From Corythoichthys intestinalis (Eukaryota): a stretch of 64,000 nucleotides of DNA. The position numbers and the translations under genes were made by a program. The first letter of the stretch is position 1, and each line of letters opens with the position of its first letter. Shown here in pieces: positions 7,167-27,094 of the stretch. The stretch is taken from the NCBI RefSeq assembly GCF_030265065.1, contig NC_080408.1:22791480-22855479 (forward strand), read 5' to 3'. A model generated the notes under the pieces. It had not been told where the DNA came from. It did not search any database and worked only from the letters and a program-made list of their open reading frames with translations.

Positions 7167-7224
7167 TCAATCTGAGGGATGCTCGGGGCAGCAGGGCTTC
7201 ACCTTGGCCCACGCGTCAATGCAG
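7167..7224 (-). CDS. ZNRF-family terminal coding exon (S CIDAWAKVKPCCPEHPSD stop)
   Basis: Acceptor gtgtggctgcag on the minus strand, phase-matched to the RING exon. Compare recalled human ZNRF2 C-terminus CIDEWFEVNRSCPEHPSD. Stop TGA at 7169-7167; the 3'UTR extends to lower coordinates. Confidence 0.75.
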
Positions 7225-8535
7225 CTGCAGCCACACACAAGTTGGTTAAGGTTGGTTCTCGGAAGGCAGTTACCACATATCCTTCCCTGCTGCAATTACG
7301 CAATACGATGCACCGTCGAACCACATTTGAACTTGACCAAACTACTTTTCCATTGAAACTAAATGATGGTCCATTATTACCAAATATTTGCCTTTCTATT
7401 GCAGCTGTCTTAGTACAACATATTCATCGATGTACTAGTACATACTTCATTATACTAACTAATTCACAGAAAAAGCGAGGGGAAGTGAGATTTTTTGAAA
7501 GTGTGAGAACATGGTTGAGTGACAGATTAAATCAATGAGATTATGACACAAGTAGGTGAGTAACAGATTGGGAATTGTGTAGACTAAAAACGTGACAGAT
7601 TTGTAGTGCGTGATTGTGAGACTTTGAGGAAGAGATTGGGAGTGTACCCTTGCCGTGTTAAGAGAGTGACTCAAATTGAAAGGCAGTAGGACTGACTGAG
7701 CGATTGAGAAAGATACAAAGAGCCATGGACCGGTTCCAATTGCAGGCTGTCTTCTGGGTGTATCCGCATTTCATCTGTATTTGAGTGCGAGAAGCCAAAT
7801 GGGGCCACACCTCTTGACATATGCTTTTTCAAAGAAGGAACTTGTGTGCGACTTGGGTGGAAACATCACATCTGCACACACTGATGTCAGGCTCATGTGA
7901 CGTAACCATGTCTGATGTGCATATGTGCATTGCCTAACCACATAAACATTTCCTCCACTTCAATTACAGGGGAGGGGGTTGAAGGCTCAATGTCCAGAGA
8001 AAAACTCACAATGACAAATCTGCATAAAAATGTTCCCGAGTCAAATCCCATTATTTTGTGACCACATCAATTCTGAATTTTTTGGGGACTGATGTTACAG
8101 TGTTTTTGCAGTGAACCTTCTTTTTAAGTTCTGGCTGTAAATGTAAAATTGAAATAAATGTCAAAATTTTTCAAGTATTTTTCCATTCAATAAAATTTCT
8201 TCCAGACTAAGGGCTTAAACACACGGGAGGCGACGTCGCTCGCGTTAAATACTTTTTTAATGGAACAAACTCGATGAGGTGAAAATCGCCAACACTCTTG
8301 CGGCGAAGCGACACGCAACATTCGTGCACGTGAAATTTCGCGCTCGTACACGTGCACATGCGGACCAGCGACTATGAATAGGGTTCGTTTGAAATTGAAC
8401 GATTCCGGTTCCATGTTTCGATTCCGGTTCCGAACGATTCTCGATTCCGATTCTTATAAGAGGCCGGGTCAAAAAGGCAGGGTCAAAAAAATTTATAGTT
8501 TAAAAATATATTAGTTTATATTAATGTCTTAACTA

Positions 8536-10098
8536 GGGCTGTCCCAAAATTTCCTCCCGATTAGTCAGCCGACTATTTTTTAGATTAGTCGACTAATCTA
8601 ATAATTTTTTTTTTTAAACTACTTTAATAATGACATTTTTGTTGAAGCTTATTAATTCACAAAAAAACATTTTGGAACACCTAAATTCTTTATTACCGTA
8701 TAAATAAATAACATATCAATAATAAATCACAAACAATGAGGTCAAATGCTGCTGGCATTAACTCGTGCAAAAAAAATGTAAACGGAAACACTGTGACTTC
8801 ACCTTTTTAACAGGAGTCAAAACAATTCTTACTCTTTTTGTGGTATGTCATTGTCTACTCTATATTGTTCTAAATGTTAAAATGAATTGCAATGTCCCGG
8901 ACAACCATTTTTAGAATACTTTGTGTGAGTTCAGATGCTTTTTCTGGTGTGCAATCCACATTTTTGGGGGAGGGGAAAAACTGTTCAATTTTTGTTTGTT
9001 CTAACCTGAAAATAGATAGAGGGCACACTGAAATATTAAAATTTTTTTGAATGAAAGGCCCACATACTCACAGTAACATAAATTAAAAAATATTGTATTT
9101 TATAGTATACTACTATATGTATATACACAATAATACTTTATAATATAAAGTAACTAACATTAGGGCAGTCATGGATTACAGTAAGCAGGCCAGTGCTGTT
9201 TCCATATATATTTTATTAGATTATGTATATACAGGATATATGTAATTTCCCCAAGTGGGAGCTTCCATGATCGTAATAAATTTAAGAATAATAAAAAAAA
9301 AAAAATATATATAATTATATTATATATATATTAATTATTTTATTGAATAAAAATGCACGTTGATACGACGCACATAAAGGCAACCTCCATTTAAAAAATC
9401 GTTAGAATGTTGTATGGACTTACAATCCGCTAGCTCGTTGTTTCTTGTTGTCTTCGAAAATTACACTTGGGTGACGGCACTTCAAGTGTTCGTTCATAGC
9501 CGACGTGCTACCGTGGTATGAGAGCTCAGCCTAGCAAAGAGTACACACAGTGGCACCCTCCATATTTGCCTTGAAATAATTCCAGGCTCTGGCTATTCTG
9601 GTCCCCTTTTTTTTTTGCCTTCATGCCGCTTTCACCTGTTACCAATTCTGCCCTTTTTGGTAAGTGGTGGTGTTTTCAAATCCTCGCCCTAGTGAGGAGT
9701 GAACCGGCGATTCACTTGGCTCATTGTCTTCGGTTCGTCCGATTTCCTCCTCAGGAAGGCTCTTTATGGATACTTTTATTGACCAAAACCAAAACGTGTG
9801 GGATGCAACCAGTCAACTACGCGCTACCCGCGCACTTTCCCAACTCACTGATCTTGCTCCCGCTCTCTCGCTCACCCACTTTCTTCGTGTTTGCTCAATC
9901 TGACAATGCCGGTCAGGTTGAAATAACAGCGACCCCCTTGAGGTGCCAGTAACAACCGCTTGCATCGCGAGCGCCCACCATTCTAAACTTTAACCACATC
10001 TAATTTTTTTTTTAACCCGTCATTACCCGTCGACGGTATGTTTTGCCCGTCGACACATTTACGTCATCGACGACGTCGACTAGTCGGGACAGCTCGAG
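8536..10098 (-). mobile_element. hAT-like element remnant encoding a BED zinc finger (YHGSTSAMNEHLKCRH at about 9440-9560, minus strand), with termini tagggctgtccc... / ...gggacagc and gtcgac-rich subterminal repeats
   Basis: BED-finger signature read on the minus strand. The termini are imperfect inverted repeats. Confidence 0.45.
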
Positions 10099-10249
10099 TC
10101 TTAACTTCTCGATTTTTTTTATTATATGAATTTAAAATGCAGAATTATAATTATTTTATTATTATTTATTATTAATACAATTAATATGAAATGTATGAAT
10201 TATATGAACTTCTCACAGGGCTATTTTTAACTTGTATATGGCGGAAAAC

Positions 10250-25580: not shown

Positions 25581-26060
25581 CTATAATCAACTAAATGCAG
25601 CATGTGTCTTGGACAATCTGTGAAAAATGTGGTGCACTGACAGTTCTCGGGATTGTTTAATTCTGTGGTTGCCACTGACAGTGCTAGACCTCCCAGTCAA
25701 AATGGATCTGATGCCCGATTCTGTCAATGGCATTGAAAGATGAACATTCACAAGCAGTCCTCCTACTTTAAATGAATTGGACGTCCATCGTCAATAGCAG
25801 CAATGAGCTAAGCTCCCTTTTGAACAGTGTTCACTGTCTCATGCAAAAAATTCATTCGTTTAGTTTTAGTTCCATATTCCTCGATTTTCTTCAACTCTAA
25901 AATCAATTTTAGTAAACAAAAGGAATGGCATGGCTTGATATTATAAATGTCTACTTTACTTTTCTTAAGACTAAGTGAACGTTCAATTAAACTAGTTGTG
26001 ACGACAATGATTTAAGTTTAACGTGATTTGGGAATGTTGAGTGGTCACGTCTCGACTTAC

Positions 26061-26589
26061 TGCCATGGCGGTTGTTGACACGGTATAGGCCGATCCAAGC
26101 CTCTGACACCGGCCGCTGGTGGGTGCCCCTGACCCGCGCCGACCTGGCGCCGACGCTGCGGCCCCCAGCGTGTCGATTTCCGGGCAGCCGCTCGGAGAAA
26201 GTGCGGTGGGGTGTGCGGCCTGTTTCCTCCCCAGGCTGATGCTCGGCGTTGACGGGAGCCTCCGGGCTCGTGCTGCCGTCCTCCTCAGCCTTGCTCTCAA
26301 TGTGGTTGTCGTCCGTCGGGGACGCCTGGCTCATGCTAGCCGCGATGCCGTGGTGGTCGGCGGGGCTGCCGTCAGCGCTCGCGCCATGCTGGCCCAGGTC
26401 GGAGTCGCTGCCTTCCTCCGAACGGCTCCGGTTGACTTCGGTGTCCTCGAAGCTGCCAGAGAAGTCCACCATGAGACTGGTGGGCCTGGCGCAACGGGGC
26501 CGTCGGTATGATTCTCTCCTGGCGGTGCCGTCCTTCCCGAGTGTGGACGGCACCGGGTCTTCCTGGAGGCGACTCGCTCTCGTGCCCAT
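26061..26589 (-). CDS. ZNRF1/2-family E3 ligase, coding exon 1 (MGTRASRLQEDP...SEAWIGLYRVNNRHG); N-myristoylation motif MGxxxS; Ser/acidic-rich, predicted disordered
   Basis: True ATG at 26589 with a Kozak context (g at -3, G at +4), in a GC-rich CpG-island-like block. It ends at a consensus donor gca|gtaagt (minus strand, + coordinates 26055-26060), phase 1. This is compatible with the phase-1 acceptor of the UBZ exon 13.9 kb downstream. ZNRF1 and ZNRF2 are likewise N-myristoylated. Confidence 0.7.
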
Positions 26590-27094
26590 CGCTAGCGAGC
26601 GGGCTAATAGAGCTTGGCTAGCCGAGCTATCGAATGCTTACGATACGCCAACAACGACCTCGATTCGACCCTTTCAGCTGCGGCGTACTCGAATGGAAAC
26701 AACAGGGAGCAGCTGCCTGGCGACCAACGTCGGGGAGCGACTTAAACTGGGCGCGCGGTTATTCTCCTGGCCTTAGTTCGTCCTTCCAGTCCACATTTTC
26801 CTTTCTTTTATGACGTACTACTTCTCGTTGCTGCAGCGGAAATAGGGCGCTCTCGTTTCCTGCTTTAAACTGTGACCAACAGTTACGGTAATGTCACTGA
26901 TTTATGGGACGGCTTTGACATTTTAATCATTAAACACCTCCTTTAAAGTCATTGCCTCGCTTCGTGTTTATATAAAGCTATATAAACTCCTGCTATTTAA
27001 AACCTTATTTCAATTTAACGTCATTTGAGGCAATTTTCAGAATCAAAAGGAACGTGAAGTTGCATGATTACGGTAAAAATAATGGTCACCGTGT

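Follow-up and report, generated by a model that had tools for sequence, protein, structure and literature searches.

We find that a gene on the minus strand of a 64,000-nucleotide stretch of Corythoichthys intestinalis DNA (hereafter the window) is very probably the pipefish orthologue within a third, conserved clade of the ZNRF1/ZNRF2 family, which we label T3 and which bears the zebrafish-derived name zgc:66427. To our knowledge, the literature treats the vertebrate ZNRF1/2 family as two-membered, and our literature searches returned nothing on zgc:66427 or on a third ZNRF paralog. The gene is already annotated in RefSeq; it is an ordinary gene, and what it adds to evolution and nomenclature is modest.

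A four-exon gene under purifying selection

The coding sequence runs from 26589 to 7167 in four exons:

26061..26589, minus strand: first coding exon (start codon ATG at 26589; 176 codons and one further nt; donor in phase 1)
12157..26060, minus strand: intron 1 (13,904 nt; phase 1; degraded repeats inside)
12061..12156, minus strand: second coding exon (96 nt; UBZ-like zinc finger of the CCHC type)
11985..12060, minus strand: intron 2 (76 nt; phase 1)
11879..11984, minus strand: third coding exon (106 nt; initial part of the RING, with C219, C222, C237, C239 and H242)
7225..11878, minus strand: intron 3 (4,654 nt; phase 2)
7167..7224, minus strand: fourth exon, coding part (remainder of the RING, with C245, W249, KVKPC and C256-P-E-H259; stop codon 7169-7167)

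These coordinates are exact and give a coding sequence of 789 nt (262 codons and a stop), in which every intron starts with GT and ends with AG (phases 1, 1 and 2). The encoded protein begins with MGTRAS and ends with CIDAWAKVKPCCPEHPSD. Database comparison of the 262-aa product returned an exact match, RefSeq XP_057712822.1 (C. intestinalis 'znrf2 isoform X1'; 100% identity over 100% of the length). A search of the contig index retrieved no contig encoding the exact pipefish protein and none for pipefish znrf1. A Logan transcript contig of 2192 bp from a second teleost (L006, with an uninterrupted 260-codon ORF) aligned to the window in four blocks, with breaks at 26074|12156, 12063|11984 and 11879|7226. 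These breaks fall at the three junctions of the gene, so that the splicing of the orthologous mRNA matches the exon model. The preliminary description had joined the exons through phase-consistent splice sites, the 76-nt intron included, and the GT/AG ends, the RefSeq identity and the L006 junctions uphold that joining. The four-exon model is correct, and the gene is real and properly assembled.

The gene could also be read as a decaying or non-functional ZNRF copy, the upstream ORF being open by chance within a GC-rich CpG island. Exon 1 indeed sits where the GC content of the window peaks (0.58 in the kilobase 26001-27000 vs 0.40 for the whole window), overlapping ORFs surround it on both strands, as GC-rich DNA would give, and the RING of the pipefish protein carries unusual substitutions. 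However, a chance frame fits neither the RefSeq model of the same product nor the identical splicing of the L006 mRNA, nor the dN/dS values obtained against this teleost transcript (exon 1, 0.15; exons 2-4, 0.024), nor the 39 columns that are invariant in 42 species, among them every zinc ligand and several Arg residues of the N-terminus. The conserved introns, the transcript and dN/dS led us to reject this reading, together with a pseudogene or a retrocopy, and we leave it with next to no probability. Exon 1 is conserved among the 42 orthologues and the N-terminus is under purifying selection.

A ZNRF1-like finger and RING with clade-specific changes

The C-terminal CCHC finger (C180-x2-C183-x11-H195-x3-C199) has the spacing found in ZNRF1 and ZNRF2. 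It is followed by a modified C4HC2H RING in which C219, C222, C237, C239, H242, C245, C256 and H259 are invariant in the 42 orthologues; counted over both domains, the 4+8 zinc ligands are all invariant or nearly so. The protein scored 32.2 bits against Pfam zf-RING_2 (cut-off 27.3). The ZNRF1 C-terminal domain (PDB 5ywr_B) matched residues 175-262 (E=1.9e-33, 88 residues) and was also the top Foldseek match (E=5.6e-09; RING pLDDT 83-89). The assignment to the ZNRF1/2 family of E3 ligases, made from the letters alone, is borne out by the 5ywr_B and zf-RING_2 matches, the zinc ligands and the shared intron phases. The downstream exons had also been called near-identical to ZNRF1/ZNRF2, which was an overstatement (51/88 of the last residues, or 58%, are identical to human ZNRF1), while the reported deviation of the C-terminus from the canonical one is real.

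Like T3, ZNRF1 (human Q8ND25; 5YWR, C-terminal domain with Ube2N) combines an MGxxxS start and a disordered N-terminal region with the same CCHC spacing, a C4HC2H RING ending in CPEHP and the same intron positions and phases; its C-terminal domain is the best structural match of T3. The ZNRF1 residues that contact Ube2N, Glu183, Leu188 and Glu189 (PMC5941314), are kept in the pipefish protein as GEC...CLED. In contrast, ZNRF1 P201 and F215 are replaced in T3: WFEVNRS becomes W-A/S/C-KVKPC, next to the conserved Trp, and LPCLC, CPIC and H..MCL become LACLC, CPFC and H..SCL. The resulting T3 signature (CPFC, H..SCL, W-x-KVKP-C-CPEHPFD) is distinctive, W-[not F]-KVKP occurring in this clade only among 324 sequences. 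The single ZNRF1/2 orthologues of invertebrates, such as Drosophila detour (CG14435), share with T3 the myristoylation motif, the CCHC finger and the RING, but they and ZNRF1/2 keep the canonical WF-x-VNRS-CPEHP RING end from which T3 departs.

A divergent but constrained N-terminal exon

The N-terminal 170 residues of T3 and ZNRF1 are unrelated in sequence. When the N-terminus of T3 was compared with those of ZNRF1/2 profile to profile (hhalign), only MGxxxS matched, confirming that it is unlike either paralog beyond this motif; the N-termini of ZNRF1 and ZNRF2 match each other only over MGxKQS. To judge from these profiles, N-terminal divergence is normal for the family. The MGxxxS motif itself holds across the 42 orthologues, with M1 and G2 invariant and S6 kept in at least 90% of them, in agreement with the N-myristoylation consensus that had been noted in MGTRAS, as in ZNRF1/ZNRF2; lipidation is thereby predicted. 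In contrast, the suggestion of a lineage-specific N-terminus fails, as the exon is conserved in teleosts, bowfin and gar, and its RPxSE...GVY motif reaches the lungfish. Residues 1-169 are predicted to be disordered (pLDDT <50). Exon 1 encodes 12.5% Ser and 14.8% Asp plus Glu, as its description as Ser/acidic-rich implied, but this left out an equal richness in Arg (11.9%); Gly also marks the composition of the region, and the net charge is about -3.

A third branch of the ZNRF1/ZNRF2 family

A neighbour-joining tree with bootstrap on 86 columns separates T3 (lungfish included; 91%) from ZNRF1 (85%) and ZNRF2 (99%). T3 forms a long branch, the most derived of the family, and the relations among the three clades are weak (T3 with ZNRF1 and hagfish, 55%). 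Full-length T3 orthologues were found in teleosts, bowfin and gar, and more divergent members in sturgeon, reedfish and an African lungfish (one protein), covering all four ray-finned fish lineages and a lungfish. The sturgeon, reedfish and lungfish members indicate that the clade predates the ray-finned/lobe-finned split. The fish-specific third paralog envisaged initially is therefore supported as a third ZNRF branch, but it is not specific to teleosts and has a lungfish member. The 96-nt and 106-nt exons and the phases 1/1/2 are shared without change by the T3 genes of pipefish and gar, znrf1 of Anoplopoma and znrf2 of Triplophysa. The boundary between exon 1 and intron 1 is homologous in all three paralogs, which favours an ancestral exon that has diverged over the capture of a new one.

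According to its RefSeq name, the gene would be the pipefish ZNRF2 orthologue, with a fast-evolving sequence. ZNRF2 (human Q8NHG8) does resemble T3 in architecture, exon structure, myristoylation motif and a Ser-rich N-terminus with basophilic R-x-x-S motifs (phosphorylated in ZNRF2, PMC4889327). A local alignment with teleost ZNRF2 runs into the N-terminus (39-42% identity over ~195 residues), and the evidence that T3 and ZNRF2 coexist comes from fishes other than C. intestinalis. Nevertheless, a true ZNRF2 accompanies T3 in many fishes: several teleosts (Triplophysa, P0431 vs P0051; Larimichthys, P0433 vs P0005), bowfin (Amia, P0399 vs P0067), reedfish (Erpetoichthys, P0384 vs P0127) and sturgeon (Acipenser, P0376 vs P0133). 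These true fish ZNRF2 proteins are 60-68% identical to newt ZNRF2 over the full length and have a NOD1-like neighbour (Triplophysa znrf2 adjoins a CARD-NACHT-LRR gene), whereas T3 adjoins TEP1. The canonical znrf2 pattern (...PRLLIGSLPxHLSPHLFGGFKCPVC...CIDEWFEVNRSCPEHPSD) includes the N-terminal motif PRLLIGSLPxHLSPHLFGG; neither this motif nor RTRAYSGS is present in T3. Moreover, T3 and ZNRF2 group together in 0.4% of the replicates, and the N-terminal profiles match only at MGxxxS. We thus consider this orthology very unlikely and the RefSeq 'znrf2' a misnomer, as the protein lies outside the ZNRF2 clade, lacks the ZNRF2 N-terminal motifs and is not encoded next to NOD1.

Orthology to ZNRF1 was rejected, since the ZNRF1 clade leaves T3 out, the locus lies beside TEP1 and not LDHD (Anoplopoma znrf1 adjoins an LDHD-like FAD-oxidase gene) and a separate znrf1 is present in C. 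intestinalis (P0283, on a different chromosome-scale contig), as in the lungfish (P0273). T3 might instead have arisen as a teleost-specific (3R) or otherwise recent duplicate of ZNRF1 with a newly acquired first exon, in line with the many T3 copies automatically named ZNRF1 and with the weak grouping with ZNRF1 and hagfish. Such an origin has little to commend it given that T3 occurs alongside ZNRF1/2 in gar, bowfin, sturgeon, reedfish and lungfish, that gar and bowfin share the conserved N-terminal exon, motifs of which extend to the lungfish, and that the first exon boundary has a homologous position and phase in the three paralogs; we regard it as highly improbable. The placement of the pipefish gene in a third, conserved clade is the reading that we retain.

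Intron 1, flanks and neighbouring genes

Several features lie within and around the gene:

13779..14624, minus strand: degraded LINE reverse-transcriptase fragment in intron 1 (broken ORFs, FYADD motif; Pfam RVT_1 E=5.8e-10 at 14304-14624)
17605..19862, no strand assigned: inverted-repeat pair in intron 1 (arms 17605-18144 and 19312-19862; 87% identity over 560 nt)
26590..26850, minus strand: putative 5' UTR and promoter (GC-rich block common to the divergent TEP1 gene)
490..7166, minus strand: putative long 3' UTR (conserved distal block 822-503; AATAAA at 514-509)
2751-3383: Tc1/mariner fragment within the putative 3' UTR, identified by Tc1 domains

Intron 1 had been described as transposon-laden. 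By a tally of intervals, repeats make up ~4.9 kb (~35%) of it, including the LINE fragment, the pair of ~550-bp inverted repeats and several dispersed repeats; but when its ORFs were tested for transposase and THAP domains, the RVT_1 fragment alone was recognisable, and the ORF at 19362-19715, which overlaps the right inverted-repeat arm, had no Pfam domain. The inverted repeats are possibly a DNA-transposon relic or two inverted copies of a repeat.

At the 5' end, the UTR of L006 is alignable up to 26628. Downstream, the distal block 822-503 is 87% identical over 146 nt to Takifugu sequence 2.4-2.7 kb past the stop codon, with a 25-nt match in gar. A non-coding RNA was considered for this block and rejected, there being no Rfam hit anywhere in the window. 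We read it as the end of the 3' UTR because of the AATAAA in the orientation of the gene, which suggests that the gene probably extends to about 0.5 kb. The neighbouring gene in the window is TEP1 (TROVE and DUF4062 domains), arranged head-to-head. In Takifugu, T3 is flanked by TEP1 and a PARP gene; in gar, a GPCR and not TEP1 lies within 10 kb upstream, so the TEP1 linkage is established in two teleosts only.

Proposed function and deeper origin

Judged by its motifs, the protein is likely an N-myristoylated RING E3 ligase. ZNRF1/2 are anchored to membranes through N-myristoylation, which requires G2 (PMC4889327, PMC10869362), and detour has been proposed to act as an E3 bound to membranes, in autophagy and vesicle trafficking (PMC10869362). 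Similarly, co-translational N-myristoylation on Gly2 would tether the T3 protein to the plasma membrane or to endomembranes. Conserved R-x-x-S motifs (RPTS38, RTFS132 and RPVS162, as pattern matches only) and an acidic SEEGSDSD cluster lie in the disordered N-terminal 170 residues; they may be docking or phospho-regulatory sites by analogy with ZNRF2, whose release from membranes is controlled by phospho-Ser19/82/145 (PMC4889327). The CCHC finger and C4HC2H RING would then recruit an E2, most likely Ube2N/Ubc13 and Ube2D, for the ubiquitylation of membrane-proximal substrates. The clade-specific changes by the E2-binding Trp (WFEVNRS to W-x-KVKPC, and LPCLC to LACLC) suggest that T3 differs from ZNRF1/2 in its affinity for E2 or in its choice of partner. 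Ligase activity may be weak or specialised, since E2 binding could be lowered by the RING changes of Pro to Ala and of Phe to a small residue.

We give about even chances to a broader reading, in which T3 is a paralog of ancient vertebrate origin. It would date back to the ray-finned/lobe-finned split or earlier, might be a 2R ohnolog of ZNRF1, and would have been lost in tetrapods and kept in lungfish and all ray-finned fishes, with a remodelled E2-binding face and phospho-regulatory N-terminal motifs of its own. The ohnolog idea derives from TEP1/PARP2 at human 14q11, which we take to be part of a 14q11/16q paralogy group. If this reading is true, the tetrapod loss, the remodelled E2 face and the distinct N-terminal motifs would make T3 a membrane E3 ligase with a distinct function and without a counterpart in mammals, masked by inconsistent automated names.

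More than 200 fish proteins of the T3 clade are named inconsistently (ZNRF1, ZNRF2, zgc:66427 or uncharacterized). With such near-random naming, transfer of ZNRF1/ZNRF2 functions to fish models by orthology (axon degeneration, Na+/K+-ATPase, mTORC1/V-ATPase, TLR trafficking) can hit the wrong gene. T3 leaves current understanding unchallenged, and the branch is open to testing in zebrafish. For the biology of the family the point is modest: a third conserved ZNRF1/2 branch in fishes and lungfish, whose RING surface is altered and whose disordered N-terminus is distinct and constrained.

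The ZNRF-like gene is correctly read and already annotated

The four coding exons, once joined, give a 789-nt open frame (262 codons plus stop). All three introns have GT...AG borders, with lengths of 13,904, 76 and 4,654 nt and phases 1, 1 and 2, and the exon coordinates and junctions of the preliminary description proved exact.

Coding exons of the ZNRF-like gene
26589-26061, minus strand, coding exon 1
12156-12061, minus strand, coding exon 2
11984-11879, minus strand, coding exon 3
7224-7167, minus strand, coding exon 4

A protein search with the conceptual product, as had been proposed, retrieved RefSeq XP_057712822.1 ('E3 ubiquitin-protein ligase znrf2 isoform X1 [Corythoichthys intestinalis]') at 100% identity over the full 262 aa, showing that the window is pipefish DNA and that the four-exon model equals the public annotation. 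Transcript support came from another teleost, whose 2,192-bp Logan contig L006 starts with the remnant of an Illumina adapter and holds an uninterrupted 260-codon orthologous ORF. Aligned to the window, L006 falls into four blocks with breaks at 26074/12156, 12063/11984 and 11879/7226, indicating that the orthologous mRNA is spliced at the same junctions. Altogether, the gene is real, correctly read and already in RefSeq.

The gene encodes a ZNRF1/2-family RING protein

Assignment to the ZNRF1/2 family was confirmed by domain matches, zinc ligands and a common gene structure. Residues 175-262 match the crystallized C-terminal domain of human ZNRF1 (5ywr_B, E=1.9e-33), which is also the top PDB match of an AlphaFold model derived from 42 orthologues (RING pLDDT 83-89). 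Homology is clear, but at 51/88 identical residues (58%) the downstream exons are not near-identical to human ZNRF1, contrary to the preliminary description. Across 42 species, there is little or no variation at the CCHC finger ligands (C180, C183, H195, C199) or at any of the eight RING ligands. Pipefish and gar T3 (the third family clade, described below), Anoplopoma znrf1 and Triplophysa znrf2 agree exactly in intron positions, in phases and in the internal exons of 96 and 106 nt, which argues that T3, ZNRF1 and ZNRF2 are old paralogs with one ancestral structure and rules out a retrocopy or an exon-shuffled chimera.

T3 is a third paralog older than teleosts

Relatives that are full-length and carry the N-terminal exon are found across the teleosts as well as in bowfin and gar. 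When 1.84 billion representatives were scanned exhaustively with HMMER, the N-terminal 177 residues were found only in this fish clade; in all other matches the alignment is confined to the C-terminal ~90-135 residues. Closest outside the clade are proteins of sturgeon, reedfish and the African lungfish Protopterus annectens, which share the T3 signatures: CPFC in the first finger, H..SCL, an RPxSE...GVY motif directly before the finger, and W-x-KVKP-x-CPEHPFD in place of WFEVNRSCPEHP. When the lungfish T3 protein was used as query, the best hits apart from the query itself were the fish T3 proteins, with amphibian ZNRF2/ZNRF1 and the ZNRF1 of the lungfish ranking lower. In a neighbour-joining tree (86 columns, 500 bootstraps), three vertebrate clades were recovered, T3 including lungfish (91%), ZNRF1 (85%) and ZNRF2 (99%), with weak deeper branching (T3+ZNRF1+hagfish, 55%).

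Canonical ZNRF2 coexists with T3 in Triplophysa, Larimichthys, Pungitius, Chanos, Sardina, Polymixia, Amia, Acipenser and Erpetoichthys, and T3-bearing species with canonical ZNRF1 include C. intestinalis (P0283) and lungfish (P0273). No T3 member from tetrapods, coelacanth, sharks or cyclostomes was among the matches listed. Judged from these sequences, T3 is a third ZNRF1/2-family paralog and is older than teleosts; because lungfish has a member, it would predate the ray-finned/lobe-finned split. The suggestion of a fish-specific third paralog, for which a phylogeny had been proposed, thus holds for the separate clade, which is not restricted to teleosts, given the gar, bowfin, sturgeon, reedfish and lungfish proteins.

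The loci also differ. Anoplopoma znrf1 adjoins an FAD-linked oxidase (LDHD-like) gene and Triplophysa znrf2 a CARD-NACHT-LRR (NOD1-like) gene; in the human genome, ZNRF1 sits beside LDHD and ZNRF2 beside NOD1. In the window, the ZNRF-like gene lies head-to-head with TEP1 (TROVE and DUF4062 ORFs, collinear tblastx to Takifugu TEP1), and the Takifugu order (L004, 1-22916) is TEP1 (-), ZNRF-like gene (+) and, ~9 kb downstream, a PARP gene (-). Gar T3 has a GPCR and no TEP1 within 10 kb. TEP1 and PARP2 are presumably neighbours at human 14q11.2 without a ZNRF-like gene between them, an arrangement that, if so, would fit T3 loss in tetrapods. Since T3 is separate from ZNRF2 in tree, species content and locus, the RefSeq name 'znrf2' is a misnomer; T3 is inconsistently named across annotations, and a literature search found no paper on the clade.

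The N-terminal exon is conserved within T3

Conserved exon 1 blocks extend from pipefish to gar (MGTRASRLQED, RxxRPTSLxVDFSGSF, NRSRSEEGSDSD, GRxPHRTFSERLPG and RPVSEAWIGLYRVNNRHG), and the N-terminus is therefore not lineage-specific. Against a teleost transcript, dN/dS was 0.15 in exon 1 and 0.024 in exons 2-4. Profile-profile comparison aligned only MGxxxS with the ZNRF1 and ZNRF2 N-termini, in agreement with the reported lack of further likeness to either paralog; the ZNRF1 and ZNRF2 N-termini themselves align only over MGxKQS, so that N-terminal divergence is usual in this family and not anomalous. The region (Ser 12.5%, Arg 11.9%, Gly 10.8%, Asp+Glu 14.8%) is predicted to be disordered (pLDDT <50, residues 1-169).

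Intron 1, the 3' end and the neighbouring TEP1 gene

Intron 1 had been called transposon-laden. This is partly accurate: a LINE fragment, an inverted-repeat pair and several repeats with copies elsewhere in intron 1 or in TEP1 introns amount to ~4.9 kb (35% of the intron, by our interval tally and tblastx extension of the LINE fragment), but the remaining ORFs had no Pfam match.

Repeats and neighbouring features
14304-14624, degraded LINE reverse-transcriptase fragment (RVT_1) within broken ORFs 13779-14624, intron 1
17605-18144 and 19312-19862, 550-bp inverted-repeat pair, intron 1
16449-16918 vs 37294-37777, 15966-16123 vs 37845-38004, 12956-13191 vs 35483-35626, dispersed repeats, intron 1 vs TEP1 introns, 70-84% identity
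2751-3383, minus strand, Tc1/mariner transposase fragment (HTH_Tnp_Tc3_2 + DDE_3), inside the putative 3' UTR
28000-64000, plus strand, TEP1 (telomerase-associated protein 1) gene
36816-37301 and 38671-39003, plus strand, TROVE ORFs of TEP1
46776-47111, plus strand, DUF4062 ORF of TEP1
40732-41112 and 44051-44458, minus strand, Tc1/mariner transposase fragments, recognised by sequence only

Beyond the stop codon, the non-coding block 822-503 (minus) shares 87% identity over 146 nt with Takifugu sequence located 2.4-2.7 kb after the stop codon of the Takifugu gene, and gar matches 25 nt of it. It ends with an AATAAA (514-509) in the gene's orientation and had no Rfam match. This suggests that the 3' UTR is ~6.7 kb long and that the block is its far end, past the gene limits initially drawn.

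The TEP1 and ZNRF-like start codons lie ~1.4 kb apart around GC-rich sequence (26-27 kb, GC 0.58), an arrangement suggestive of a common bidirectional promoter. The window TEP1 exons are collinear with Takifugu TEP1; ORF 62617-63441 (P-loop-like GGPGQGKT) had no Pfam match and could be read as NACHT. A TEP1 intron holds a nearly intact LINE (48975-52858, plus), possibly young, with an ORF1-like 236-aa frame, a 547-aa endonuclease ORF (Exo_endo_phos) and a 340-aa reverse-transcriptase ORF (RVT_1, E=5.5e-40).

Predicted function

ZNRF1 and ZNRF2 owe their membrane anchoring to N-myristoylation; in ZNRF2, G2A abolishes membrane interactions, and phosphorylation of N-terminal serines frees the protein from membranes (PMC4889327; PMC10869362). 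The ZNRF1 RING binds Ube2N via Glu183, Leu188 and Glu189 (PMC5941314), which T3 retains as GEC...CLED. With G2, S6 and all zinc ligands also kept, T3 would be expected to be an N-myristoylated, membrane-tethered RING E3 partnering with Ube2N and/or Ube2D. As candidate sites for regulation, T3 carries an acidic Ser cluster and three nearly invariant R-x-x-S motifs (Ser38, Ser132, Ser162). A shift in E2 affinity or specificity is suggested by the T3-wide replacements beside the E2-binding Trp and by the Pro-to-Ala change in LPCLC.

In a RefSeq isoform of Anoplopoma znrf1 (P0163, L002), the start lies in an upstream 9-codon exon (MGLWRSSVP) reading into the normal exon 1; the canonical MGGKQS becomes internal, so that the isoform would lack myristoylation at its usual Gly. 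This start may be an annotation artefact.

Mechanistically unsurprising and of low to moderate interest, the finding is useful for annotation and for orthology in fish models.
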